NCBI RefSeq assembly: GCF_003325475.1
Contig: NZ_CP029495.1
Coordinates: 2,631,353-2,695,352 of the forward strand
DNA: 64,000 bases
Origin: Chromobacterium phragmitis
Lineage (GTDB): Bacteria; Pseudomonadota; Gammaproteobacteria; Burkholderiales; Chromobacteriaceae
Reading direction: 5' to 3'
Made by a program: the position numbers and the translations under genes. The notes beneath the pieces are model-generated. The model had not been told where the DNA came from. It saw nothing but the letters and a program-made list of their open reading frames with translations, and ran no database searches. Positions within the stretch are counted from its first letter, which is position 1; every line of letters starts with the position of its first letter. Positions 1,276 through 59,522 of this stretch are shown one piece after another.

Positions 1276-3470
1276 GGCGTGCTTCCTTGCAGTGGCGAGC
1301 CGGGGCGGGCGGCATCGGCGCGCGGCGGCAGCGCGAACCGTTCCGATTCCTTGCGGCATGCGTGTTGGATCAGGGCGGGAACATCCAGGATCAGCGCGAC
1401 CTCGCCTGTGCCGAGGATGGTGGAGCCGCTGATCGCCTTCAGTGTGCTGAACAGCGTGCCCAATGGCTTGATCACGGTCTGGAACTCGCCCTGCAGCGCG
1501 TCCACCACCAGACCGGCCTTGCGATCGCCATATTGGGACACTACCACGTTGCGGCGCGCCGCAGCCGTGGGCGTCAGCTCGAAAAAATGGTCCAGATGCA
1601 GCAGCGGCAGCAGTTCGCCGCGCAGATTGATGCAATCGTGGACGCCGTTTTCAGGCAGTCCGGACGGCAGCTCGATGCATTCGATCACGGTTTCCAGCGG
1701 CAGCACGAAGGTGGAGCCGGCCACTTCGACCAGGAAGCCGTCTATGATGGCCAGCGTCAGCGGCAGGCGGATGCGGAAGGTGGTGCCGCGCCCGGCCTCG
1801 CTGTCGATTTCGATATTGCCGTGCAGCTGTTCGATGCCTCGTTTGACCACGTCCATGCCCACGCCGCGGCCGGATAGATTGGTCACCTGCTCGGCGGTGG
1901 AGAAGCCGGCTTCGAAAATCTGCTGGAACACCGCGCTGTCTGGCGGCTCCTCGTCCTCGCCCAGCAGGCCGCGTTGACGCGCCTTGGCCAGGATGCGCTC
2001 CCTGCTGAGGCCGCCGCCGTCGTCGGCCACCTCGATCACCACGCTGCCGGATTCATGGTAGGCGTTGAGCCACAGATTGCCTTGGGCGGGCTTGCCGCCG
2101 GCCACTCGGACCGAGGTCGGCTCGATGCCGTGATCGATCGCGTTGCGCACGATGTGCAGCAGCGGGTCGCCCAGCTTCTCCACCATCGACTTGTCCAGCT
2201 CGGTTTCCGCGCCGACGATGCGCAGCTGGATTTCCTTGCCCAGCTCGCGCGACACGTCTCGGACCACGCGAGGGAAACGATGGAAAATTTCGCCTATCTG
2301 CACCATGCGCATCGACAGGGTGCCGGCGCGAATCTGCTCGATCAGGTTGGCGATGCTGAGCGTGGCCTCCACCAACTGCGTCTGCTGCGAGCGGCGGGCG
2401 ATCAGATTGGCCGCCGCGCCGGCGATCACCAGCTCGCCGATCAGATTGATCAGGCTGTCCAGCTTGCCGGCCTCCACCTTGATGAAGCGGCTTTCGCCGC
2501 CGCGCCCGCCTCGGGCGTCAGCGGCCGGAGCCGGCTCCGCCTGGATGTCGGCGCGGCCGGCCGGGGAGGGCTTGGCCAGGGACGGCTCATCGTCTGGCGT
2601 CGCTAGCGGGTGTTCCAGCAAGGGATCTGGGGCGGCAGCGGGGTTTTCCAGCGGAAAGGCCTGCCCCAGCGCCCCCATCTGATGCCAGGCGCGCTCCACT
2701 TCGGCCGCCTCGTCCGGCGTCGCGCTGGCGCAGGCTTCGTGCAGGTGGGCGGCGGCGATTTTCAATGGCCAGATGAACAGCTCGCTATCCTCGCGCACGA
2801 ACTCGAACACTTCGCTCAGCGATTGCTCGTCGATGTCGGACTGGTACAGCAATTCGAAACGCAGGTAGTTGCCTTCCGCGTCGAAGTCCGCGCCTGCGGG
2901 CAGGCGGCAACTGATCGCATGGATTTGCTCCACCTCGCCCAGCGTGGCGAGGTAGCGGATGAAGGACGAGGGATCCAGGCCGCTGCGCAGCACATCGGGT
3001 CCGAAGCGCAGCGACAGCAGCCATCGCTCCCGCTGCGACGCGGCGGGTTTGGGATCTTCGTGATGCCGTTCCGGCTGCATCGCTTGCGGCACCGCCAGGT
3101 AGCCCAAGAGCGCGGCCTCCAGCGCCTCGTCCCGCAGCGGCTCCAGCGCCTCGTTGGCGGTCAAGGCCTGGATCAGGAGTTTGACATGGTCGTGGCAGCG
3201 CAGCAGCAAGCCCACGAGTTCGTCGTCCAGGGCCAGTTTGCCGTCGCGCAGCTGGTCGAGCAGGTTTTCTGCCTGATGGGCGAAGCTGACGATGGTCTCC
3301 AGGCCGAACAGGCCGGCCGAGCCCTTAATCGTATGCATCGTCCTGAACAGCGCGTTTAATTGCTCGGCGCTGGTTTGCTCCGCCTCCACGTCCAAGAGAA
3401 TGCTTTCCATCTCGTCCAGCAGCTCGCGGGACTCCTCCAGAAAGGTTTGCAGCGCCTGTTCAAGATCCAT
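1272..3470 (-). CDS. cheA: Chemotaxis histidine kinase CheA
   Basis: 732 aa. N-terminal Hpt domain with the HTIKGSAG phospho-His motif, dimerisation and HATPase_c region (NAIDHGIE…DDGGG), and a C-terminal CheW-like domain. Confidence 0.9.
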
Positions 3471-5296: not shown

Positions 5297-6523
5297 ATGG
5301 CACTCATCGTACAGAAGTACGGCGGCACCTCGGTAGGGACGACCGAGCGTATCAAGAATGTGGCCCGCCGCGTCGCCAAGTGGAAGGCTCAGGGACATGA
5401 TGTGGTGGTGGTGGTCTCCGCGATGAGCGGAGAAACCAATCGCCTGATAGCCCTGGCCAAGGATATCCAGGATTACCCCGATCCGCGCGAGCTGGACGTG
5501 GTGGTCTCCACCGGCGAGCAAGTCACCATCGGCCTGCTGGCGATGGCGTTGAAAGAAATCGGCGTGCCGGCCAAGAGCTATTGCGGCTGGCAGGTGAGGG
5601 TGGTGACCGATCAGGCCCACACCAAGGCCCGCATCCAATCTATAGACGACGAAGCGATGCGCGGTGATCTGAAGGAGGGCCGAGTGGTCATCGTCGCCGG
5701 CTTCCAGGGCATGGATGAGGAAGGCAACATCACCACGCTGGGCCGCGGCGGTTCGGACACTTCGGCGGTGGCGCTGGCCGCCGCGCTGAAGGCGGACGAG
5801 TGCCAGATCTACACCGATGTGGACGGCGTCTATACCACCGATCCGCGGGTGGTGCCCGAAGCGCGCCGGCTGAAGACGGTGACCTTCGAAGAGATGATCG
5901 AAATGGCGTCTCTGGGCTCCAAGGTATTGCAGATCCGCTCGGTGGAGTTCGCCGGCAAGTACAAGGTGCGCTTGCGCGTGCTCTCCAGCTTCGAGGATGA
6001 AGGCGAGGGCACCCTGATTACGTTTGAGGAAGATGAAAGCATGGAAAAGGCGGTAGTGGCAGGCATCGCGTTCGATCGCAACGAAGCCCGCATCAATGTC
6101 AAGGGCGTGCCGGACAAGCCGGGCATCGCCTACCAGATCCTGGGTCCGATCGCCGATGCCAACATCGAAGTGGACATGATCATCCAGAACGTCGGCGAGA
6201 ACGGCACCACCGATTTCTCGTTCACCGTGCCGCGCGGCGAATTCAACCGCGCCTTGACCATCCTGCGAGAAGTGCAGACCCATATCGGCGCCGCCAAGAT
6301 CGATGCCGATGACAAGGTGGCCAAAATCTCCATCGTCGGCGTGGGCATGCGCTCGCACTGCGGCATCGCCTCCACCATGTTCCGCACGTTGGCGGAGGAA
6401 GGCATCAATATCCAGATGATTTCCACCTCGGAAATCAAGGTGTCGGTGCTGCTGGACGAGAAATACCTGGAGCTGGCGGTTCGCGTTTTGCATAAGGCTT
6501 TCGGTTTGGATCAGGCGGCGTAA
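5297..6523 (+). CDS. lysC: Aspartate kinase
   Basis: MALIVQKYGGTSVG… N-terminus and C-terminal ACT-domain region typical of monofunctional aspartokinase. Start chosen at the internal ATG that matches family N-termini. Confidence 0.9.
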   Translation: MALIVQKYGGTSVGTTERIKNVARRVAKWKAQGHDVVVVVSAMSGETNRLIALAKDIQDYPDPRELDVVVSTGEQVTIGLLAMALKEIGVPAKSYCGWQVRVVTDQAHTKARIQSIDDEAMRGDLKEGRVVIVAGFQGMDEEGNITTLGRGGSDTSAVALAAALKADECQIYTDVDGVYTTDPRVVPEARRLKTVTFEEMIEMASLGSKVLQIRSVEFAGKYKVRLRVLSSFEDEGEGTLITFEEDESMEKAVVAGIAFDRNEARINVKGVPDKPGIAYQILGPIADANIEVDMIIQNVGENGTTDFSFTVPRGEFNRALTILREVQTHIGAAKIDADDKVAKISIVGVGMRSHCGIASTMFRTLAEEGINIQMISTSEIKVSVLLDEKYLELAVRVLHKAFGLDQAA

Positions 6524-6542: not shown

Positions 6543-6571
6543 TTGACAGAAGAAGAGCCCATAATTAATAT
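6543..6571 (+). promoter_or_regulatory. Sigma-70-type promoter for the + strand tRNA array (TTGACA-N17-TAATAT)
   Basis: Near-consensus -35 TTGACA (6543-6548) and -10 TAATAT (6566-6571) with 17-nt spacing, about 15 nt upstream of tRNA-Ser. Confidence 0.65.
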
Positions 6572-6585
6572 GGCGCTCTCTGAAC

Positions 6586-6679
6586 GGAGAAATGGCCGAG
6601 TGGTCGAAGGCACTTCCCTGCTAAGGAAGCATACGGGCTTAAACCTGTATCGAGGGTTCGAATCCCTCTTTCTCCGCCA
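6586..6679 (+). tRNA. tRNA-Ser (anticodon GCT)
   Basis: Cloverleaf with long variable arm, anticodon loop cuGCUaa, T-loop GGTTCGAATCC, 3' CCA encoded. Confidence 0.85.
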
Positions 6680-6685
6680 GATGCC

Positions 6686-6762
6686 GCACCCGTAGCTCAG
6701 TTGGATAGAGTATCTGGCTACGAACCAGAGGGTCGGGCGTTCGAATCGCTCCGGGTGCACCA
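6686..6762 (+). tRNA. tRNA-Arg (anticodon ACG)
   Basis: GCACCCGTAGCTCAGTTGGATAGAGT… with anticodon loop cuACGaa; T-loop GTTCGAATC; CCA encoded. Confidence 0.85.
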
Positions 6763-6766
6763 AGAC

Positions 6767-6841
6767 GTCCCTATAGTTTAGCGGTTAGAACACCGCCCTT
6801 TCACGGCGGTGGCCGGGGTTCGATTCCCCGTGGGGACGCCA
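6767..6841 (+). tRNA. tRNA-Glu (anticodon TTC)
   Basis: GTCCCTATAGTTTAGCGGTTAGAACACC… with anticodon loop cuTTCac; T-loop GGTTCGATTCC; CCA encoded. Confidence 0.85.
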
Positions 6842-6855
6842 GGATTCAGAAAAAG

Positions 6856-6883
6856 CCTCGTATGAAAATACGAGGTTTTTTTT
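6856..6883 (+). terminator. Rho-independent terminator after the + tRNA array
   Basis: Hairpin CCTCGTA-tgaaaa-TACGAGG followed by a T8 tract. Confidence 0.75.
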
Positions 6884-7312
6884 ATCCAGATCAATGACAT
6901 TGGCATTGCGGTTTCGGCATTTTATCTTGTGCTGGTGGTGTCGGACTTTTGATTCGGTTCCAGCCTGGTTTGGCGGCTATGCGGCGGGTGATTGTTGCGC
7001 GCCGCTGATTTCTTTTGGGGTGAGAGCGCGGGTCTGTTGTTTGTGCTTGCTTGTGTTTTGGTCGTCGGGTGTCGGTTGCTGTCGTCCGGTGGGATTTGGC
7101 GTGGCTGCTTGGTGTCATTCTTTGCGTAGTGGCGGATTTGGGTCGGCTTACGATGCTCTTCGGGGTGGTTGTTTCGGTTTTGTGGGGCGGGTGTTGTCAT
7201 TGCCGGTGGTGGCGTTGGATTTGAGATGGGTGTGGGTTGGCGTGGGGATTTGTTTGAGCGTGGAGTGCGCGGCGAGTCTGTCATTCTGAGGTGGGGTGCG
7301 GCGGCGAGGGGA

Positions 7313-7343
7313 AAGAAAAAAGCCTCGTATTTTCATACGAGGC
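7313..7343 (-). terminator. Rho-independent terminator after the - tRNA array (mirror copy of the + terminator)
   Basis: Hairpin GCCTCGTA-tttca-TACGAGGC with a T-tract on the minus strand. Confidence 0.7.
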
Positions 7344-7356
7344 TTTTTCTGAATCC

Positions 7357-7431
7357 TGGCGTCCCCACGGGGAATCGAACCCCGGCTACCGCCGTGAAAG
7401 GGCGGTGTTCTAACCGCTAAACTATAGGGAC
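7357..7431 (-). tRNA. tRNA-Glu (anticodon TTC)
   Basis: Reverse complement of the + strand tRNA-Glu with one substitution. Confidence 0.85.
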
Positions 7432-7434
7432 AGC

Positions 7435-7511
7435 TGGTGCACCCGGAGCGATTCGAACGCCCGACCCTCTGGTTCGTAGCCAGATACTCTATCCAACTGA
7501 GCTACGGGTGC
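7435..7511 (-). tRNA. tRNA-Arg (anticodon ACG)
   Basis: Reverse complement identical to the + strand tRNA-Arg. Confidence 0.85.
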
Positions 7512-7516
7512 AGCTT

Positions 7517-7591
7517 TGGCGTCCCCACGGGGAATCGAACCCCGGCTACCGCCGTGAAAGGGCGGTGTTCTAACCGCTAAACTATAGGGAC
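7517..7591 (-). tRNA. tRNA-Glu (anticodon TTC), second copy
   Basis: Same sequence as 7357-7431. Confidence 0.85.
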
Positions 7592-7600
7592 GCTGAGTTG

Positions 7601-7677
7601 TGGTGCACCCGGAGCGATTCGAACGCCCGACCCTCTGGTTCGTAGCCAGATACTCTATCCAACTGAGCTACGGGTGC
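7601..7677 (-). tRNA. tRNA-Arg (anticodon ACG), second copy
   Basis: Same sequence as 7435-7511. Confidence 0.85.
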
Positions 7678-7714
7678 ACTGTTTCGCGAGACGCTGTGTC
7701 TTGCGAGAGGTCGA

Positions 7715-7743
7715 ATACTACAGATAGGCGTTTTGGCTGTCAA
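7715..7743 (-). promoter_or_regulatory. Sigma-70-type promoter for the - strand tRNA array (TTGACA-N17-TAGTAT on the minus strand)
   Basis: Reverse complement of 7738-7743 is TTGACA and of 7715-7720 is TAGTAT, 17-nt spacing, about 35 nt upstream of tRNA-Arg at 7677. Confidence 0.6.
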
Positions 7744-7867
7744 CACCTCATAGGCTTTTTTTTGCAAAGCCGGTAAACTCGACGGCTGTCCTTGTCGCGG
7801 CACGCCAACATTTTCAGACATTTGGCATGCTGGCCGCGAAGTTGCGAGACATGAAAGCGAAGCGAGA

Positions 7868-8458
7868 TTGAATAACCTGTTTGCACAACCCTGCGCCATC
7901 GTCGACCTGGAAACCACCGGCGGCAACATCGCGCGAGACCGCATCACGGAAGTCGGCATGGTGCTGATAGATGGCGAGCGCGTCGAGCGTCTGTCCTGGT
8001 TGGTCAATCCGGGACAACCGATTCCCCCCTTCATTGAGAATATGACCGGCATCAGCAATGAAATGGCAGCCGCCGCGCCGCCGTTTTCGGCGCTGGCCGA
8101 TGACTTGCTGTCCCGGTTGCAAGGGCGGCTCTTGCTGGCGCACAACGCCCGCTTCGATTACGGTTTCCTGAAAAACGAATTCCGCCGGCAGGGGCTGCGT
8201 TTCCAGGCGCGCGCGCTATGCACCGTCAAGCTGTCGCGCCGCCTGTACCCGCAGCATTTCAAGCACAGCCTGGATAGCCTTATCGCCCGCCATGGCATTG
8301 CGATGCCGGAACGCCACCGCGCGCTGGCCGATGCCGAGGCGGTGTATCGCTTCATCCAGATCGCGAGCGCGGAGCTGGGCGAAGACAAGGTGGCGCATGA
8401 GGCGTCGCAGTTGCTGTCGCAGCCTGCCGAATTGTCCAGTCTCCCGGCTGATCTGTAG
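7868..8458 (+). CDS. DEDDh 3'-5' exonuclease domain protein (DNA pol III epsilon-like)
   Basis: Exo I motif DLETTG, Exo II HNARFD, Exo III H…ALADA. 196 aa. Ends at a TAG that is in frame with the next ORF. Confidence 0.8.
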   Translation: MNNLFAQPCAIVDLETTGGNIARDRITEVGMVLIDGERVERLSWLVNPGQPIPPFIENMTGISNEMAAAAPPFSALADDLLSRLQGRLLLAHNARFDYGFLKNEFRRQGLRFQARALCTVKLSRRLYPQHFKHSLDSLIARHGIAMPERHRALADAEAVYRFIQIASAELGEDKVAHEASQLLSQPAELSSLPADL

Positions 8459-8464
8459 CAGCAG

Positions 8465-9274
8465 GTGGAGGACATGCCGGACTCGGCCGGCGTCTACGCG
8501 CTGTTCGGCGAGGACGGCAGAGCCTTGTATGTGGGGCGGGCGCCCAATCTCTATCGCAAGACGCTGGGCCATTTCGCCGAGCGCAAGCCTGGGCAGAAAA
8601 GCCATGAGGCGCGGATAGACGAGCCGGTGGCGCGTGTGGAATGGCGGGAAAGCCTGGGCGATTTCGGCGGCCATTTGCTGGAGCTGCAATGGTTGAGCCG
8701 GCTGCAGCCGCTGCACAATCCGCGCGCGCGCATGATGGGCGAGGTATGTACCTTGCAGTTGCAAACTGGCGAGGATGGTTTCATGCGGGCGACACCGGTA
8801 TCGGCGCGGGACATCGACTTCACCCGCACCGGCGACCTTTACGGCCTGTTCCGCCATGCGCGCGAGGCGCGCAAGGCGCTGGCGCAGATCGCGCTGGCGC
8901 AGGGCCTGTGCCAGTCGGTGCTGGGCGTCGAGCAGGTGACCAGCCGCAAGGGCCAGCCTTGCGCCGCGCATCAGATACGCCGCTGCCGGGGCGCCTGCGT
9001 GGGCGAGGAGGAAGCGGACAGCCATAATCGGCGTCTGAAGACCGCGTTGCAGCGGCTCAAAGTCAAGCCGTGGCCGTTCGAGGGCGCGGTGGCGGTGGCG
9101 GAGCATGACGAAGTGTGCGGCGACGTGGTCGAGCATCTGTTCGACCGCTGGTGCTATCTGGGCAGCCGCCGCAATGGCGGGGCGCTGGAAGGCGAGCCGG
9201 CGTTCGATCTCGACTATTACAAGTTGCTGGAAAGCGAACTGCGCAAGCCGGATCGGGAGGTGAGGGCGCTTTGA
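8465..9274 (+). CDS. GIY-YIG nuclease domain protein (Cho/UvrC-N-terminal-like excinuclease)
   Basis: GVYALFG…ALYVGRA GIY-YIG motif at the extreme N-terminus. 269 aa. Same frame as the upstream exonuclease ORF. Confidence 0.75.
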   Translation: MEDMPDSAGVYALFGEDGRALYVGRAPNLYRKTLGHFAERKPGQKSHEARIDEPVARVEWRESLGDFGGHLLELQWLSRLQPLHNPRARMMGEVCTLQLQTGEDGFMRATPVSARDIDFTRTGDLYGLFRHAREARKALAQIALAQGLCQSVLGVEQVTSRKGQPCAAHQIRRCRGACVGEEEADSHNRRLKTALQRLKVKPWPFEGAVAVAEHDEVCGDVVEHLFDRWCYLGSRRNGGALEGEPAFDLDYYKLLESELRKPDREVRAL

Positions 9275-12272: not shown

Positions 12273-13690
12273 CCGGCCTGCGCCGCCTGCATGATGGGCA
12301 TCTCGTCGGTCTGCAGCGAGAATGGCGAGGCGATCTGCTGCGCGCGCATCGCGCGGTCGATCAGGAAGGCGGCGTTGGCCGCGTGCAGGTCTTCCGGCAC
12401 GCGCTGGCCGTTGGTGATGTAATAAAGCTTGAGCCGGTTGCGGATGATCACGTCCAGGCTGGGGCCCTGGGCCACCGCTTCGTCTATCTTGGACAGGATG
12501 CAGCCGGCGAGGCCGTCGCCGCGGTAGCGCTTCACCACGTCTTCCAGCGTGTGGCCGTCGGTGTTGGCGGCCAGCAGCAGCAGCCGCTCGATCGGGCGGC
12601 CGGCGGTGCGCAGCATGTCTATCTGCGCCAGCACGCGGGCGTCGCGCTGGCCCATGCCCACGGTGTCGATGAATACGATGTGGCGGTTGGACAAGTCGGC
12701 CAGCGTCAGTTGCAAGTCGCCCTCGTTCTGGATCGAGAACACCGGCACACCCAGAATCTTGCCATAGATGCGCAGCTGGTCCTGAGCGCCGATCCGATAG
12801 CTGTCGGTGGTGATCAGCGCCACGTGCTGGGCGCCGAAGCGCATCGTCGCGCGGGCGGCCAGCTTGGCCACGGTGGTGGTCTTGCCGACGCCGGTGGGGC
12901 CCACCAGCGCGAAAATGCCGCCGCGGTCCATCACCTCGCGGTCCGCGTCCGCGCATTTGAGGTTGTGCGCCAGCGCCGACCGCGCCCATTTCACCGCGAC
13001 TTCGGCCTGGTACTGCGCCGGCATCTTTTCTATCAACTGACGGATCAGCTGGGCGGAGAAGCCCATCGCCAGCAGGTGTTTGAACAGCTCCAGCCGGTTG
13101 GGCGCCTTGCCCTCCATGTCAGACCAGGCGAAGCTGGCCAGCTGGCTCTGCAGCAGGCTTCTGAGCAGCTTGATCTCATCGCCGATCTGCTTGAGCTCCT
13201 GGGCCATTTGCTCCGGCTCCTCGCCGTTGGCGTGGGCCGCCGGGGACTCCGGCGCCGATGGGCGCGGGGCGGAGCGGGGCGGGGCCGCCGGCGCGGGTTG
13301 CGGGGCGGCGGCTGGAGGCGTGAAGACCGGCTCGATGCGCGGCGGCGCGGTTTCCAGCCGAGGCGGGGCGGGGCTTTCCAGTGGCTCCACCGGCATGGCG
13401 TAAGTGCGCGCGATGGCGCGGTTGACCGCGCTGCCGTTGGACTGGGGAATGGGCGCGGGTTGCTGCGGCGGGCGGCTGGCCGGCGGCGCGTTGCGCGGCG
13501 GATGCTTGCTCGAGGAGGGGGACAGCGTGCTGGCCAGGTTGGCGACGTCCGCGTCGGCCACCGCCATGATTTCCACGCCGCCGCCCATGGTGGGGCGATT
13601 GGACAAGATGAGGGCGTCGGCCCCCAGTTCTTCGCGAACTTGCCGCAGCGCGTCTCGAGTGGTTTTCCCGAAGAACTTTTTTACTACCAT
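12263..13690 (-). CDS. flhF: Flagellar biosynthesis GTPase FlhF (SRP-type)
   Basis: N-terminal MVVKKFFGKTTRDAL…, proline-rich linker, SRP-GTPase motifs GPTGVGKTTT and DTVG. Confidence 0.9.
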   Translation of the reverse strand: MVVKKFFGKTTRDALRQVREELGADALILSNRPTMGGGVEIMAVADADVANLASTLSPSSSKHPPRNAPPASRPPQQPAPIPQSNGSAVNRAIARTYAMPVEPLESPAPPRLETAPPRIEPVFTPPAAAPQPAPAAPPRSAPRPSAPESPAAHANGEEPEQMAQELKQIGDEIKLLRSLLQSQLASFAWSDMEGKAPNRLELFKHLLAMGFSAQLIRQLIEKMPAQYQAEVAVKWARSALAHNLKCADADREVMDRGGIFALVGPTGVGKTTTVAKLAARATMRFGAQHVALITTDSYRIGAQDQLRIYGKILGVPVFSIQNEGDLQLTLADLSNRHIVFIDTVGMGQRDARVLAQIDMLRTAGRPIERLLLLAANTDGHTLEDVVKRYRGDGLAGCILSKIDEAVAQGPSLDVIIRNRLKLYYITNGQRVPEDLHAANAAFLIDRAMRAQQIASPFSLQTDEMPIMQAAQAGWL

Positions 13691-48824: not shown

Positions 48825-49801
48825 GGCCAGCAGGCTGGGCGGATGGGTGGGGACTTGATTGTGCAGCAGCCAGCGGCTGCGGGCGGGATGACGGTTGTTC
48901 AGGGAAAACGCGAGATGCGATGAACTGCGGGTGATGCTAGGCATGGCAAAACCCTCCTGGATAGGTGCTTAACCCTGCCAACCCCAACGCCAAGTAGGGG
49001 TGGCAGGCACATGGCGGGATTGGCGTACCGATCCAGGAGCGGCGCATCATAGATGCTCCCACCATGGCCCGCCATAGAGGACGTGCAATGGTGTACGGAC
49101 GCGACAAGGCCCAGCCTTGCACAGAAGTCCGCCTGAATGCGGGACGCCAATCCCGGTGCCGCTATTGAACGGCACGATTGAGATTATCCGGCTGGAAGGC
49201 TTGCTAGGCAAGCAATTGGGGCTGGAATAGGGTGTGCTTTGGGGCAGTACGTAGAATCCGCTGCGCGGCTGATGGTTTGGATTGCCGGGGTTGCCCGGCG
49301 GCAGGCTTGAAGGGATTGGGGCGCGTCGCAAACGCGCTTGCGTTTTGCCAGCGATGAATAGGGCATGACATTTTGCCGTGGCTTGCTTAATCGGTAGCTG
49401 AACCGAACCGACTTGCCCCCATCCCATCAGCGCAAGCCGACTTCGGAGCCATTTTCAAGGTTTTAAGACGCCGGTTTGTTCGACGTCGCGCGACGGTAGC
49501 GCGCGGCTAGTTCCGGCGGCTCCTTGAAAATGGCTTCGGAGGCGGGGTTTCGCAGCGCTGTTGGGTCGCCTTTTCTTTCGTCCATTTCTTTTGGCGAAGC
49601 AAAAGAAATGGACCCGTCCAGCCGGGCGGAACCGGCACTTAACGGTCAGTCCGCGAAGCGGACACAAACTAATCTGTATTACGTGGTAGCCGTTTGACCT
49701 TGGTGGCTCAGTCGCGATTTGCGGACTTTAAACGAATTGCGAACTTCAAGCTTTGCTAGGCTAGTGAATGAATTATAATTTTATTGAGTGAAAAGGTGAA
49801 A

Positions 49802-49829
49802 TAAAAAAGCACTTGTTTCTCAAGTGCTT
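49802..49829 (-). terminator. Rho-independent terminator ending the AT-rich island operon
   Basis: AAGCACTTG-agaaa-CAAGTGCTT + T-tract on the minus strand. Confidence 0.75.
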
Positions 49830-49860
49830 CCGAGTGCGGAGCTTTACTTTATTGGGTTGG

Positions 49861-50190
49861 CTAACTATTTTTAATGAGATCTTTCTTTTCAACTTCTTGG
49901 CTTTCAATATTTCTTTTTGTCTCTTTGAAAGCCTGAACAAAACTGTTAATGAGTTTTTCTCTCTTGTTATTCGTTGGTGACAGTTTTTCTCTGCATGATG
50001 TTTTTTCTATTTTCCACCCAGTCCTTATTTTTTCTTTTTTGGTGGCTGGTAAAGAGCTGTTCTCTATTGATCTAAATGATTTAACTTGAGGTAGCGATGA
50101 GCGTAGAGCTTTGTCTAGCTCTATAATAAATATTCTTTCTGACTCGGTTGGAGCTCTAAGTTTATTAATTTTTGCCATTTTTATCTCCAT
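49861..50190 (-). CDS. Lys/Glu-rich hypothetical protein, distal gene of the AT-rich island
   Basis: 109 aa, strongly AT-biased codons, 15 bp downstream of the 570-aa gene on the same strand. Confidence 0.5.
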   Translation of the reverse strand: MEIKMAKINKLRAPTESERIFIIELDKALRSSLPQVKSFRSIENSSLPATKKEKIRTGWKIEKTSCREKLSPTNNKREKLINSFVQAFKETKRNIESQEVEKKDLIKNS

Positions 50191-50205
50191 AATGAGCTGT
50201 GGAAA

Positions 50206-51918
50206 TTAACCTAGCCACTGAGCTGGATTGCTAATTTTCAGTGGCTCAGCCCCCATAAGTTCAAATCTGACAGCATTGTCATCAGTACGATTATCCATCG
50301 TTACCTGTTGACTCTGCATTGCCGCTAAAGATAAAAGAAAGCCATGATGGCGATCTGGCAATATCAAATGTTGAGTCTTTCCCGTGTGGTGCTTCCAAAG
50401 GGCGACGGAGCGAACTCCGTTAGTTTCTTGTCGATTTGATCTATCTACCATCGCGGCAGAAGTAACACTTAAAATTGCTGATCCGGGGTCATCAGCTAGT
50501 ACTGTTGCATAACGAGCCGGCCAGCGTGTTGTGAGCTGTGGCCCATCCATCAGTAATGCTATCACGAGGTTGGGTCCGATAGCTCGTACAGCAGGAAGTG
50601 CGGGATCGTTACGTGCCAAATCCTCACATACCAAGACGGCTATACACGCATCTCTCTGGATTGTATAGAACGGTAGATGTCTTTCTGCCACGTCAATGTG
50701 CTCCCACCAGTCAACATTACTGTCTGCCGGGAATGATGAAAAGTTGTAACGTTGCGTTTGTGCAACATCAAGCTTCCATCTGTGATGCTTTGAGTGTTCG
50801 TATTGAAAAAATTCCTCATTATCAACAAGGAAATATGACATTGCTTTGTTTTTTGGGATTTTATTTGGAACGCTACTTATAACACCTGAAATTAAAATTC
50901 TAAGGCCATTTATATATTCATCCCTAGCTAAAATACGAGCGAGCTCATATGAAACCTCTTCAGTCAGTGAACACTCTGGGAAGATAACACAATCAATTTT
51001 TTTGTAGTGTCTTCTTGATTCAAGTAGAAGAGGTTTGACAAGATCATTGTATATATTCTTGGCAATTTCACATGGTTGCTCTTTTCCAAAACCTGGTATC
51101 CAAGATGGGTCTAGTTCAAAGTAGCCAAATTTTTTAATATTTTTCTTACTCGCTTTGGGGGGACATCTTGGTCTTATTGCAGTCGCTTTCATTTCAAATG
51201 GATACGGGATGAATAGAGCATTAAATCTTGTTTCGTCAGATAATAGAAAGTTTTCAGGGCTTAAAGATTCGACATTTTGCAATGAGTTCCAAGAAATTTT
51301 CAGCTTAGGCTGAGCTTCATGAAGTGCAAGGTGATGACTTAAAGATCGAATTGAAAATCCTACGGATGGGCATATTGACTTTGGTGTGACTACAGCTCTT
51401 TGGGGAGGTATTGCGTAGCATAAGGAGAATGGAAAGTATGGAGGCCTAAGGCATTCAAGTTTTTGACTTGTAATTGCCTGTAAGTTATCTATTTTCATTA
51501 ATTTTGGGAAGAGCAGTCCGCTAAAAACGGAGTCTTGAAAGTCTAATCCCCAACCTAACCCTGCTGAAGCTTCGTCAGAGCAAGTAAATAAAAAATGTAT
51601 TTCTGAGACTAATTTCTCATCTCTATATATTTGATCAATTGCAGTTAATCTTTTCTTGTAGATGTAAGACCAGCTTCTTTTTATTTCTGAAGGAGGAGAG
51701 AAATTATCTTTCCATTCTGAGGCTACGGATGATATTGACTTCCTGCGAGTAAACTTTTTGGGATTTAAAAGGACGGCTTTTTCCATTATGGTTGCAGTAA
51801 AAGCAAACGTATCTGATGGCCAAGATGGACAATTTTCTACGGATTTTCCAAAGTTAAAATTTTCATTACTTTGTGTCCCATTTGGGAATAGAAATTCTAT
51901 CATGTCTTGTATGTTCAT
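50206..51918 (-). CDS. Large hypothetical protein of the AT-rich island; C-terminal half has a candidate nitrilase/CN-hydrolase-like Glu-Lys-Cys triad
   Basis: 570 aa uninterrupted ORF in a region of about 35-40% G+C (estimate by eye). Motifs VIFPE (E315), YEHSKHH (K377) and VLVCEDL (C431), spaced as in the nitrilase superfamily. N-terminal 300 aa show no recognisable domain. Confidence 0.55.
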   Translation of the reverse strand: MNIQDMIEFLFPNGTQSNENFNFGKSVENCPSWPSDTFAFTATIMEKAVLLNPKKFTRRKSISSVASEWKDNFSPPSEIKRSWSYIYKKRLTAIDQIYRDEKLVSEIHFLFTCSDEASAGLGWGLDFQDSVFSGLLFPKLMKIDNLQAITSQKLECLRPPYFPFSLCYAIPPQRAVVTPKSICPSVGFSIRSLSHHLALHEAQPKLKISWNSLQNVESLSPENFLLSDETRFNALFIPYPFEMKATAIRPRCPPKASKKNIKKFGYFELDPSWIPGFGKEQPCEIAKNIYNDLVKPLLLESRRHYKKIDCVIFPECSLTEEVSYELARILARDEYINGLRILISGVISSVPNKIPKNKAMSYFLVDNEEFFQYEHSKHHRWKLDVAQTQRYNFSSFPADSNVDWWEHIDVAERHLPFYTIQRDACIAVLVCEDLARNDPALPAVRAIGPNLVIALLMDGPQLTTRWPARYATVLADDPGSAILSVTSAAMVDRSNRQETNGVRSVALWKHHTGKTQHLILPDRHHGFLLSLAAMQSQQVTMDNRTDDNAVRFELMGAEPLKISNPAQWLG

Positions 51919-52021
51919 AATTTCTCTCTCAACAATCTCTTCCCGAAATTTCTATACCCGTATAGGTATATGGATTTTTTACCGTGGTGTGACTTTATAA
52001 GTAGGTATTTTAATGAATGAA

Positions 52022-56814: not shown

Positions 56815-57031
56815 ACGCCGCGCTTGTTGACGCAGGTTAAACGGCGAGCGGTCAGCGGGATAGACCAACATTTGTTAGAATCCCCCGCGCATATTGCAGA
56901 TGCATTGCGCAATATGCCAGGTAACGGCGGATACCGCTCCAAGGAAAAAGGACGGGTCCGCCAGGCGCTTCGCCCGCGGTGGGCGGGCGTCATGTAAACC
57001 ACTTGGTCACAAAACATCCAAGGAAAGCCTT

Positions 57032-57409
57032 ATGCAGAAGCAAAGACCGAAGCATCTGGACTTGGCCAGGATCAGACTGCCCGTTCCGGGTTTCGTCTCC
57101 ATCCTGCACCGGGTCAGTGGTGTGGCGTTGTTCTTTTCCCTCCCGCTGTTGATCTATCTGCTGCACGGTTCGCTCAGCTCCGCCGAATCGTTCGACACCT
57201 ACAAGGCGGTAGTGTCCCACCCGCTGATGAAGCTGGCATTGCTGGGCCTGATCTGGGCCTATCTGCATCACTTCTGCGCCGGCATTCGCTTCCTGTTTCT
57301 CGACATTCACAAAGGTCTCGAACTCGAGACCGCCCGCGCGACCGCCAAGACCGTGCTGGTCGTCAGCCTGGTGCTGACCGTGGTTCTGGGAGGTATCGCT
57401 CTATGGTAA
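57032..57409 (+). CDS. sdhC: Succinate dehydrogenase cytochrome b556 subunit
   Basis: MQKQRPKHLDL…ILHRVSGV… N-terminus typical of SdhC. Confidence 0.88.
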   Translation: MQKQRPKHLDLARIRLPVPGFVSILHRVSGVALFFSLPLLIYLLHGSLSSAESFDTYKAVVSHPLMKLALLGLIWAYLHHFCAGIRFLFLDIHKGLELETARATAKTVLVVSLVLTVVLGGIALW

Positions 57410-57747
57410 ACCGTCACGTCGTCGGCGCCGGCTATGGCCTGCGCGACTGGATCATGCAGCGCGTCACCGCCGTGGTGATGGTGCTTTACACCGTAGCCAT
57501 GGCGCTGTTCCTGCTGGCGCTGCCTTCCGGCTACGAAGGCTGGAAATCCTTGTTCAGCCATACCTGGGTCCAGCTGTTCACCCAGGTGACCTTGCTGGCG
57601 CTGTTCCTGCACGTATGGGTGGGCATCCGCGACGTATGGATGGACTATGTGAAGCCGGTGGGCATCCGCCTGGCGCTGCACATGTTCACCATTCTGTGGC
57701 TGGTTTCCTGTTTCATCTATTCCGTTAAAGTGGTCTGGGGGCTGTAA
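57403..57747 (+). CDS. sdhD: Succinate dehydrogenase hydrophobic membrane anchor
   Basis: 114 aa, three TM helices, overlaps sdhC end and sdhA start. Confidence 0.85.
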   Translation: MVNRHVVGAGYGLRDWIMQRVTAVVMVLYTVAMALFLLALPSGYEGWKSLFSHTWVQLFTQVTLLALFLHVWVGIRDVWMDYVKPVGIRLALHMFTILWLVSCFIYSVKVVWGL

Positions 57748-59522
57748 TGGGCGTAGCTGTTCGTCATTTTGATGCGGTGGTCGTGGGCGCCGGCGGCGCC
57801 GGCATGCGCGCCGCGCTGCAACTGTCGGAAGCCGGTCTGAAGACCGCCGTGCTGTCCAAGGTGTTCCCGACCCGTTCCCACACCGTGGCCGCCCAGGGCG
57901 GCGTGTCCGCTTCGCTCGGCAACTCCGAGCCGGACAACTGGCACTGGCACATGTACGACACCGTCAAGGGGTCGGACTGGCTGGGCGACCAGGACGCGAT
58001 TGAATTCATGTGCCGCGAAGCCCCGAAAGTGGTGGTGGAGCTGGAGCACTACGGCATGCCGTTCGACCGCAACCCGGACGGCACCATCTACCAGCGCCCG
58101 TTCGGCGGCCACATGTCCGACTTCGGCGAAGGCAAGCCGGTCCGCCGCGCCTGCGCCGCCGCCGACCGCACCGGCCATGCCATGCTGCACGCGCTGTACC
58201 AGCGCAATGTGCGCGCCAACACCCATTTCTTCGTGGAATGGATGGCGCTGGACCTGATCCGCGACGCCGAAGGCCGCGTGCAGGGCGTTGTCGCCATGGA
58301 AATGGAAACGTCCGAGATCGTCGTGTTCCAGGCCAAGGCCACCCTGTTCGCCACCGGCGGCGCCGGCCGCATCTTCGCCTCGTCCACCAACGCTTTCATC
58401 AATACCGGCGACGGCCTGGGCATGGCCGCCCGCGCCGGCATCCCGCTGGAAGACATGGAGTTCTGGCAGTTCCACCCGACCGGCGTGGCCGGCGCGGGCG
58501 TGCTGATCACCGAAGGCGTGCGCGGCGAAGGCGGCATTCTGCGCAACAGCTCCGGCGAGCGTTTCATGGAGCGCTACGCGCCGAACGCCAAGGACCTGGC
58601 CTCCCGCGACGTGGTGTCGCGCGCGATGGTGTCCGAGATCAACGAAGGCCGCGGCTGCGGCCCGAACAAGGACCACGTGCTGCTGGACATCACCCACCTC
58701 GACCCCGAGGTGATCATGTCCAAGCTGCCGGGCATCCGCGAAATCTCGATCAAGTTCGCCGGCGTGGACCCGATCAAGGCCCCGATCCCGGTGGTGCCGA
58801 CCTGCCATTACCAGATGGGCGGCATCCCCACCAATTACCACGGCGAAGTGGTGATCCAGGGCCAGCCGGTGCACGGCTTCTACGCCGCCGGCGAAGTGGC
58901 GTGCGCGTCGGTGCACGGCGCCAACCGCCTGGGCACCAACTCGCTGCTGGACCTGCTGGTCTTCGGCAAGAGCTCGGCCAATTCCATCATCGAGTTCGTC
59001 AAGCAGCAGCCGGAAGACCTGCCGCAGCTGGCGATGGCCGATGTGGAGCGCTCCGTCGCCCGCGTCGCCCGCTTGGACAACCAGACTAACGGCGTGCAGG
59101 TGCATGATGCCCGCGCCGAGATGCAGCGGGTGATGCAGGCGCACTGCGGCGTGTTCCGCTTCAAGGACATGCTGGCCGAAGGCGTGGACAAGATCATGCA
59201 GGTGGCCGACATGGTGGCCAAGACCGAGATCGGCGACAAGTCCAAGGTGTTCAATACCGCCCGCATCGAGGCGCTGGAGCTGGAGAACCTGATCGAAGTG
59301 GCCAAGGCCACCATGGTTTCCGCCAATGCCCGCACCGAGAGCCGCGGCGCCCACGTGCGCGACGACGCGCCGGACACCCCGGAAACCCCGAACGGCCGCG
59401 ACGACGTCAACTGGCTCAAGCACACCTTGTGGTTCCGCGACGGCAACCGTCTGGAATACAAGCCGGTGAACATGAAGCCGCTGACCGTGGATACGATCAA
59501 GTTGAAGGCCCGCTCCTACTAA
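57747..59522 (+). CDS. sdhA: Succinate dehydrogenase flavoprotein subunit
   Basis: 591 aa. FAD-binding GAGGAG, covalent-FAD His region (…RSHTVAAQGG…), catalytic …HPTG…/…R.H… motifs. Confidence 0.95.
   Translation: MGVAVRHFDAVVVGAGGAGMRAALQLSEAGLKTAVLSKVFPTRSHTVAAQGGVSASLGNSEPDNWHWHMYDTVKGSDWLGDQDAIEFMCREAPKVVVELEHYGMPFDRNPDGTIYQRPFGGHMSDFGEGKPVRRACAAADRTGHAMLHALYQRNVRANTHFFVEWMALDLIRDAEGRVQGVVAMEMETSEIVVFQAKATLFATGGAGRIFASSTNAFINTGDGLGMAARAGIPLEDMEFWQFHPTGVAGAGVLITEGVRGEGGILRNSSGERFMERYAPNAKDLASRDVVSRAMVSEINEGRGCGPNKDHVLLDITHLDPEVIMSKLPGIREISIKFAGVDPIKAPIPVVPTCHYQMGGIPTNYHGEVVIQGQPVHGFYAAGEVACASVHGANRLGTNSLLDLLVFGKSSANSIIEFVKQQPEDLPQLAMADVERSVARVARLDNQTNGVQVHDARAEMQRVMQAHCGVFRFKDMLAEGVDKIMQVADMVAKTEIGDKSKVFNTARIEALELENLIEVAKATMVSANARTESRGAHVRDDAPDTPETPNGRDDVNWLKHTLWFRDGNRLEYKPVNMKPLTVDTIKLKARSY

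Follow-up and report, generated by a model that had tools for sequence, protein, structure and literature searches.

A G+T-rich spacer between convergent tRNA operons of Chromobacterium phragmitis probably holds the strand-asymmetrically decayed remnant of a receptor gene

Introduction

The described systems that come closest to the locus treated here are the concerted evolution of multi-copy tRNA operons, the pseudogene relics of deleted accessory genes, the compositional asymmetry between DNA strands that is due to deamination, and the Rho utilization (rut) sites located downstream of tRNA operons. Deamination asymmetry is at its most extreme in the vertebrate mitochondrial heavy strand, and an established case of a tRNA operon terminated by Rho is tyrT of Escherichia coli. 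How deamination of DNA that is single-stranded in replication or transcription generates compositional asymmetry between strands has been reviewed (PMC3269012, PMC2031905). Here, we analyze a tRNA locus of Chromobacterium phragmitis, located at positions 6586-7677 of a stretch of 64,000 nucleotides (RefSeq assembly GCF_003325475.1, contig NZ_CP029495.1, positions 2,631,353 to 2,695,352 of the forward strand). In the following, this whole stretch is called the window, and coordinates are counted from its first letter. The locus contains two oppositely oriented tRNA arrays that enclose a 431-bp spacer, which is extremely rich in G and T on the top strand.

Comparison with these systems reveals likenesses and differences in each case. 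As in concerted evolution, the tRNA-Arg genes are identical and the tRNA-Glu genes nearly identical, not only within and between the arrays but also when C. phragmitis is compared with C. sphagni; the tRNA copy number varies among strains, and a conversion tract appears to reach past the gene into the terminator. Here, however, the converting copies would be inverted, in convergent operons that are only 433 bp apart. The spacer resembles pseudogene relics of deleted accessory genes in its syntenic position, its collinear fragments, its broken frame and its large internal deletions, but its decay is extremely strand-asymmetric (28 changes versus 4), with a GC skew of +0.44 and an AT skew of -0.60. 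As in deamination asymmetry, G and T are elevated on the strand expected to be single-stranded and the changes are of the C>T and A>G types, but the asymmetry amounts to six to eight times that of the surrounding genome and is limited to 431 bp; we know of no description of a comparable local excess at a bacterial chromosomal locus. Finally, the minus-strand RNA of the spacer is, like rut sites such as that of E. coli tyrT, a C-rich, G-poor and unstructured RNA downstream of a tRNA operon, a likeness seen from the sequence alone; unlike these sites, it is unconserved, much longer and, in this strain, placed behind an intrinsic terminator.

Our view is that the locus consists of two ordinary convergent tRNA operons, that the spacer between them contains the relic of a receptor gene which decayed asymmetrically, and that the long inverted repeat at the borders of the spacer was made by gene conversion. 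We assign this account as a whole a probability of about 0.65.

Results

A compositional outlier between two tRNA arrays

ARAGORN and Rfam (RF00005) detect seven tRNA genes in the window, all of them at this locus and at the places given in an earlier note on this DNA. Their Rfam scores are 62-69 bits, compared with a gathering score of 29. The genes and the spacer are the following:

6586-6679, plus strand, tRNA-Ser(GCT)
6686-6762, plus strand, tRNA-Arg(ACG)
6767-6841, plus strand, tRNA-Glu(TTC)
6885-7315, spacer of 431 bp, non-coding, 75% G+T on the top strand
7357-7431, minus strand, tRNA-Glu
7435-7511, minus strand, tRNA-Arg
7517-7591, minus strand, tRNA-Glu
7601-7677, minus strand, tRNA-Arg

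That the spacer is skewed towards G and T had been noticed before, and the skew makes it the compositional outlier of the window. The spacer contains 176 G, 149 T, 69 C and 37 A (G+T 75.4%, GC skew +0.44, AT skew -0.60). When the whole 64 kb is divided into 200-nt segments (mean G+T 0.523, standard deviation 0.046, peak 0.81), a G+T fraction of 0.70 or more is reached in the spacer only, and the 11 segments of 100 nt (10-nt step) with the largest excess of G over C all lie in it. The segments with the next largest excess of this kind are found at about 13230-13540 (e.g. G 58 versus C 28). The genomic background cannot explain the skew, as fourfold-degenerate sites in the window have a GC skew of only +0.05 to +0.07 and a G+T fraction of 0.53 on either gene strand. 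The 300 nt downstream of 51 other lysC-linked tRNA arrays have a G+T fraction of 0.514 +/- 0.046, with a maximum of 0.653 versus 0.75 here, and the non-coding DNA beside the minus terminator of C. sphagni has a mild GC skew of +0.16 to +0.19. Among the roughly 90 loci compared, the spacer matched only those of three other C. phragmitis genomes, L081 (CP029554), L082 (CP158160.1) and L083 (JBDXMJ010000001.1), with which the window is compared below.

Could the spacer encode a small protein or a structured non-coding RNA? Long open reading frames (ORFs) are present on both strands (131 aa on the plus and 120 aa on the minus strand), and there is a weak promoter-like site at 6900-6928. However, ORFs of this length are expected from the composition, because few A or few T residues per strand leave few stop codons. 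Moreover, in L082 and L083 codon 6 of the plus ORF is TGA and the minus ORF has ACG as its start codon, no Shine-Dalgarno sequence is visible ahead of the plus ATG, and no gene is called in the spacer in three annotated genomes. As for a structured RNA, there is no Rfam match in the spacer at E<=1, and the spacer folds no better than its shuffled versions (z +0.68 for the plus and +1.30 for the minus RNA), the minimum free energies over 431 nt being -143.6 and -53 kcal/mol, respectively. A coding or structured-RNA role is therefore very improbable. Tandem Repeats Finder detects no tandem repeats in the spacer, its autocorrelation offsets all have z <=2.6, and neither strand contains G-quadruplex motifs with loops of up to 12 nt. 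The Chi-like sequence GCTGGTGG occurs once in it (6931), which is uninformative given strand counts of 11 versus 10 in the window. We also considered and rejected phage or mobile DNA: viral contigs do not contain a 20-mer of the spacer, nor metagenome contigs a 24-mer, and there is no integrase nearby. The earlier remark that the spacer has no obvious function agrees with these results, and most likely it has no dedicated function.

Traces of a receptor gene

The loci of sister species show what may once have been located between the arrays. In C. sphagni, the order is lysC, Ser-Arg-Glu on the plus strand, a gene for a TonB-dependent receptor (TBDR) of 902 aa on the minus strand, Glu-Arg-Glu-Arg on the minus strand, and cho. 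In C. subtsugae, the flanks are the same and enclose four cargo genes, which encode the receptor, a GntR/aminotransferase protein, a 135-aa ORF and LysE. The arrays of these two species bracket about 3-6 kb of cargo, the first member of which is the TBDR gene on the minus strand. In CV08, of which the lysC side lies beyond the DNA examined, the cho-side array is accompanied by cargo of at least 9.5 kb, at the end of which lies the receptor gene, and in IIBBL 290-4 genes for a MacB-type transporter adjoin the minus array. A MacB-type transporter and a two-component system are also part of the CV08 cargo. The receptor orthologues have Pfam Plug and TonB_dep_Rec_b-barrel domains. In the genus, the cargo between the arrays (loci L085, L087, L088, L091 and L092) ranges from none in C. 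phragmitis to at least 9.5 kb in CV08. Across the genus, the inter-array segment is variable, and it is in C. phragmitis that the cargo shrank to 431 bp. A tRNA-targeted integrative island was considered and rejected as the nature of the cargo, which in the sister species is flanked by inverted complete arrays and not by direct repeats of a tRNA 3' end; no integrase is present among the called genes of the sister-species cargo.

Two relics of the receptor gene can be traced in the spacer:

6950-6997, minus strand, 3' end of the TBDR gene
6999-7173, minus strand, middle of the same gene (about residues 358-379 of the C. sphagni protein, plus sequence upstream)

The middle piece gives the strongest signal. 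Positions 6999-7087 match the middle segment of the receptor gene by blastn with 65.6% identity over 90 nt and 39.7 bits, a score that none of 300 dinucleotide-preserving shuffles of the spacer attained (maximum 35.4 bits). At the protein level, tblastn gives 54.5% identity over 22 aa (E 1.3e-5), with NQNTGQYEQWTRRLAPEEIGGA aligned with DQNTSKHKQQTRALTPKEISGA. Since the differences are mostly transitions, the sequences were realigned in a purine/pyrimidine alphabet; spacer positions 115-289 (6999-7173) then align at one and the same column in each of three receptor orthologues (scores of 61, 66 and 43; null maximum 44). The other piece, 6950-6989, aligns over 40 nt with the last codons of the receptor gene in C. 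sphagni, at 77.5% identity. It is in syntenic position, beside the plus terminator and at the expected distance from it, the receptor gene's own terminator hairpin having been deleted, and in the purine/pyrimidine alphabet it scores 35 and 39 at orthologue alignment columns 11-58. The two pieces are collinear with the receptor gene and have the expected orientation, and the tblastn alignments contain stop codons and frameshifts, as is the case for a pseudogene, over 6950-7173. These alignments indicate that at least the left 60% of the spacer is wreckage of the receptor gene, consisting of its 3' end and a middle piece, and perhaps the whole spacer is a remnant of it. The cargo of C. phragmitis would then have been deleted down to 431 bp, leaving the receptor-gene relics behind.

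Strand-asymmetric change

Substitutions were counted on the top strand, in the relic columns in which two outgroups agree:

C to T: 17
A to G: 11
G to A: 2
T to C: 2
A or C to G or T, all types: 34
G or T to A or C, all types: 9

Hence, C>T and A>G together account for 28 changes versus 4 for G>A and T>C, and changes from A/C to G/T outnumber the reverse by 34 to 9 (binomial p 1.5e-6). With three outgroups and 100 well-aligned columns, the complementary transition classes number 16 and 2. The relic changes are deamination-type transitions confined to one strand. They occurred in a gene that was already moderately skewed: on the same strand, the receptor gene has a G+T fraction of 0.57-0.59 overall and of up to 0.68 locally, and in the relic columns with agreeing outgroups the G+T content of the outgroups is 57-59%, versus 75% for the whole spacer and 0.73-0.81 for the relic in 200-nt segments. 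The richness in G and T thus appears to reflect strand-asymmetric decay on top of a moderate inherited skew rather than a designed element.

Between 37 and 46% of the comparable relic columns changed in the C. phragmitis lineage, versus 13% of the fourfold sites of cho and motA, although it should be noted that the latter are constrained by a GC content at third codon positions of about 92%, with C<->G changes being dominant, and are not a clean neutral benchmark. The intergenic region on the cho side is too conserved to serve as one, and neither benchmark separates raised C>T from lowered G>A.

The flanking operons

The arrays are embedded in the following features:

5297-6523, plus strand, lysC (aspartate kinase), ORF of 408 aa, left anchor
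6543-6571, plus strand, predicted sigma-70-like promoter of the plus operon, TTGACA-17-TAATAT, 10/12 matches in a consensus scan
6850-6883, plus strand, predicted intrinsic terminator of the plus operon, found by folding, stem GCCTCGTAT/ATACGAGG, loop GAAA, T8
7316-7349, minus strand, predicted intrinsic terminator of the minus operon, fold of -24.1 kcal/mol, z -6.3
7743-7715, minus strand, predicted sigma-70-like promoter of the minus operon, TTGACA-17-TAGTAT, 10/12 matches in a consensus scan
7868-9274, plus strand, cho-like gene (RNase_T exonuclease, UvrC_M and Cho_C), right anchor

In the order of transcription, the plus array (6586-6841) reads Ser-Arg-Glu and the minus array (7357-7677) Arg-Glu-Arg-Glu. 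The former reads rightwards and the latter leftwards, i.e. the arrays converge tail-to-tail. ARAGORN and Rfam confirm the anatomy that had been described (Ser-Arg-Glu on the plus and Glu-Arg-Glu-Arg on the minus strand); the description of the arrays as head-to-head has to be corrected in view of the directions of transcription. The three tRNA-Arg copies are identical, as had been claimed, but this claim does not hold for tRNA-Glu, whose plus copy has a single-base difference (A45G, window 6811) relative to both minus copies. At this position, the other Glu copies examined, namely those of the window's own minus array, L081, L083 and C. sphagni, have A.

A near-consensus sigma-70 promoter on the outer side of each array and mirror-image terminators bounding the spacer had also been proposed, and at the sequence level both are found. 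The promoter block of the plus operon (6543-6571) is kept in C. sphagni, and the promoter of the minus operon lies within a block conserved in five Chromobacterium species. The plus terminator folds with -24 kcal/mol (z -8.1) and would be bidirectional on account of an A-tract on its other side; a homologous hairpin follows tRNA-Glu in C. sphagni and C. subtsugae. The stem of the minus terminator is the same except for the closing base. We infer from these features that the predicted promoters and terminators function as such. The locus is made up of two ordinary convergent tRNA operons, one linked to lysC and the other to cho, each with its own promoter and terminator.

The LysC protein has the same sequence in three other C. 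phragmitis genomes and matches the Pfam AA_kinase and ACT families. The cho-like gene, which diverges from the minus tRNA operon, has a TAG codon at 8456-8458, in place of the CAG of three other C. phragmitis strains. This in-frame TAG cuts the 468-aa Cho-like protein into ORFs of 196 and 269 aa, and is either a strain-specific nonsense mutation or a sequence error.

Among the matches listed, many Betaproteobacteria have lysC followed by Ser, Ser-Arg or Ser-Arg-Glu in one direction, and the Ser-Arg-Glu array after lysC is also present in Rivihabitans, C. sphagni and C. subtsugae. The four-gene array upstream of cho (Glu-Arg-Glu-Arg on the minus strand) is found in C. sphagni, C. subtsugae, CV08 and IIBBL 290-4. 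The convergent pair of arrays is common to at least three Chromobacterium species, and the arrangement is old within the genus.

The possibility that the inverted array is an assembly chimera deserves consideration, as the short-read contigs L084 and L086 end at these tRNA repeats and L082 has a gap there. The earlier note had held that unidirectional arrays in related genomes would point to such a chimera. What is found is the opposite: the same structure is present in the independent complete genome L081, and C. sphagni and C. subtsugae likewise have convergent arrays. We consider a chimera to be next to impossible.

A repeat probably made by gene conversion

The ends of the two arrays form a long inverted repeat, which can be delimited in two ways:

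6767-6882 and 7316-7431, inverted repeat of tRNA-Glu and its flank, 116 nt at 98% identity
6683-6882, plus strand, left arm of the composite inverted repeat (Arg, Glu and terminator)
7316-7514, minus strand, right arm of the composite inverted repeat

A perfect inverted repeat of about 118 bp had been reported; the repeat is real, but it extends over 116 nt at 98% and is not perfect. Its arms are separated by 433 nt. In the composite version, 6683-6882 matches the reverse complement of 7316-7514 at 194/200 positions.

As the tRNA genes are invariant across species, a test for gene conversion is informative only in the terminator flank. There, the minus-array terminator of C. sphagni, CV08 and IIBBL 290-4 has the stem GCCCAGCATG.., unlike that of C. 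phragmitis, and the stem of C. subtsugae is different again. Both arrays could be inspected in C. sphagni and C. subtsugae, and in each of these species the plus and minus terminators are unlike each other. In the window and in L081, by contrast, they are alike, the minus terminator having the stem of the plus array (GCCTCGTAT-GAAA-ATACGAGG), and this C. phragmitis minus terminator is unlike those of all four other species examined. In other words, the paralogous flanks within the genome are more alike than the orthologous flanks between species, which is the pattern that conversion would produce.

The simplest reading of these sequences is that the minus terminator is a converted copy of the plus-operon terminator. 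The conversion tract would have started in the inverted tRNA-Glu copies and run into the flank, replacing the minus operon's own terminator, and its direction would have been from the plus to the minus terminator. The near-perfect 116-nt repeat would exist because conversion between the inverted tRNA-Glu copies spilled into the flank, and since these copies lie 433 bp apart, the product would be a hairpin-capable repeat of about 200 bp.

Strain variation at the locus

The window and L081, an independent complete genome, are collinear and 98.8% identical, and have the same locus structure. The flanks of L082 and L083 are 99.7% identical to the window. In both of these strains, however, the minus array is Arg-Glu-Arg-Glu-Arg and abuts the spacer, without the terminal Glu and without the hairpin, and the RNA after the last minus tRNA has essentially no fold (-1.6 kcal/mol). 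The plus array of L082 has one additional Arg. Therefore, the 116-nt mirror repeat is present in two of the four strains, the tRNA copy number varies on both sides, and strains sharing an identical LysC are not alike in their number of tRNA genes or in whether the inner Glu and its terminator are present. The locus is recombinationally active, and both kinds of polymorphism would follow from the same repeat-driven recombination.

In L082, which is listed as a complete genome, positions 7657-7756 are a run of 100 N located exactly within the plus terminator hairpin, which suggests that the assembler was unable to resolve the locus. In L083, the CheA-like gene is called as two pieces of 403 and 321 aa, and at 3111-3210 the alignment to the window is broken, about 100 nt standing opposite 21 nt of the window, probably on account of a further assembly gap. 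The spacer differs from that of L082 and L083 at 2.3% of positions (10/431) and the flanking 6.7 kb at 0.3%. Relative to L081 the pattern is reversed, with 0.5% for the spacer and 1.2% for the region. The uneven divergence of spacer and flanks suggests either recombination between strains at the locus or a higher mutation rate of the spacer.

The earlier note had viewed the long inverted repeat as a hotspot for inversion or for hairpin and cruciform formation that could mark a replication-related boundary. This view may be supported by the 194/200 matches of the composite repeat, by the great stability of its single-stranded fold-back (-294.8 kcal/mol), by the repeat content that varies among strains together with the gap of 100 N within the plus terminator hairpin of L082, and by the fact that the GC and AT skews change sign at 57-58 kb, about 50 kb away from the locus. 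However, the spacer has the same orientation in the four strains, the orientation of the cargo (receptor gene) relative to cho is the same in three other species, and the extreme strand skew could not persist under frequent flipping, all of which speak against an inversion hotspot. Although the long near-perfect repeat of a palindrome is present, its short or absent centre is not, and with a centre of 433 bp, extrusion of a cruciform from duplex DNA is strongly disfavoured; of the proposed structures, only the single-stranded fold-back is thermodynamically possible, and a duplex cruciform is unlikely. The proposed replication boundary does not hold either: there is no skew switch at the locus, and the cumulative GC skew climbs smoothly through it, turning only near 57-58 kb. 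Taken together, we regard this view of the repeat as highly improbable. On the question of whether orientation and spacer are conserved at orthologous loci, the answer is divided: the orientation is, but the spacer is restricted to C. phragmitis among the loci compared, the sister species enclosing cargo genes.

At about 57000-58000, the GC skew and the AT skew both change sign and the cumulative GC skew peaks. This may be the replication terminus, located about 50 kb from the tRNA locus, although no E. coli-type dif site is present in the 64-kb window at up to 3 mismatches. In L082 and L083 the tRNA locus lies at about 53-54% of the chromosome. The window also contains a low-GC island at about 49500-52000 (GC 0.36-0.43 versus about 0.63 elsewhere), which is probably horizontally acquired DNA.

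Discussion

Origin of the asymmetry

Which process could cause changes that are confined to one strand? The GC skew is positive across the window, and GGGNAGGG motifs are distributed 7:1 in favor of the plus strand upstream of about 57-58 kb; therefore, the top strand would be the leading-strand sequence and, thus, the lagging-strand template, which is the strand that is exposed single-stranded at the fork. As single-stranded DNA, 6683-7514 is predicted to fold back on itself (-294.8 kcal/mol), with about 197 bp in the stem and about 430 nt in the loop, and only C. phragmitis has inverted arrays near enough to each other (832 nt in all) for such a fold-back. The cause that we prefer is deamination of the single-stranded top strand. 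The arms would fold back on the lagging-strand template, leaving the top strand of the spacer as a single-stranded loop; alternatively, a G-rich read-through transcript from the plus operon would form an R-loop exposing the same strand. In either case, the exposed top strand would deaminate at C and A, giving rise to C>T and A>G changes. The more specific idea is that a mutational hot zone, local and specific to one strand, arose when the arrays came to lie 433 bp apart, and raised G+T to 75-81%; this is tentative, and we think it rather unlikely.

The asymmetry might also be due to selection. In this alternative, the A+C-rich RNA transcribed from the minus strand of the spacer has been selected as a Rho-dependent terminator or "collision buffer": Rho, acting on C-rich, G-poor and unstructured RNA, would stop minus-operon read-through from running antisense into the plus operon, and selection would maintain the skew. 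Several features are consistent with this. Within the first about 170 nt past the terminator, the minus RNA contains 45-51 C versus 9-13 G per 100 nt, the most extreme values in the window, and it is almost unstructured over its 431 nt (-53 kcal/mol versus -143.6 for the plus RNA). L082 and L083 do not have any hairpin past the last minus tRNA, the minus operon is oriented head-on to replication, and the G>A and U>C changes in the minus RNA both lift C over G. On the other hand, the sequence is species-specific gene wreckage; among the loci compared, the spacer is found in C. phragmitis alone, and the element is not conserved. In addition, the skew spans all 431 nt when a loading site needs less than 100 nt, the depletion of U in the minus RNA is not needed for Rho, a strong hairpin terminator already lies ahead of the spacer in the window and L081, and the changes are mostly transitions, as mutation bias would give. 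A selected Rho site is doubtful, in our opinion, but it has to be taken seriously as an alternative, above all for the strains without the minus hairpin. It is possible that the C-rich minus RNA that resulted from asymmetric decay was co-opted as a Rho-dependent buffer between the colliding operons.

It should be noted that several points weigh against the account of asymmetric decay of a receptor relic beside a conversion-made repeat. The polarity of the changes assumes that the intact orthologues retain the ancestral state. The substitution spectrum is compatible with mutation bias and with selection alike and does not separate them, since a top-strand C>T or A>G change reads as G>A or U>C, respectively, in the minus RNA, and it is these changes that selection for a Rho site would favor. 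There is no enrichment of G+T at the 51 lysC loci, and therefore simple read-through mutagenesis is no general rule. The 3'-end relic is weak when taken alone, its blastn score being attained by 6/300 shuffles, and blastn, tblastx and purine/pyrimidine alignment detect no homologue of the right 142 bp (7174-7315) in the sister-species cargo. As for the repeat, L082 and L083 could have lost one arm, or the window and L081 could have gained one.

Conclusions

In summary, the strand asymmetry of its decay is the only unusual feature of this locus, the genetic element being otherwise ordinary. The repeat appears to be a clean case in which conversion between inverted tRNA genes that spills into the flank builds a long hairpin-capable repeat, and the polymorphism at this repeat between strains escapes short-read assemblies. 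If the bias in the relic is mutational, the spacer would provide a natural record of how DNA becomes exposed as single strands between convergent and highly expressed operons close to a replication terminus. If the view of a local hot zone is true, it would be a natural reporter of mutagenesis induced by secondary structure or R-loops in a bacterial chromosome. If the bias is selective instead, gene wreckage would have been recruited as a Rho loading region.

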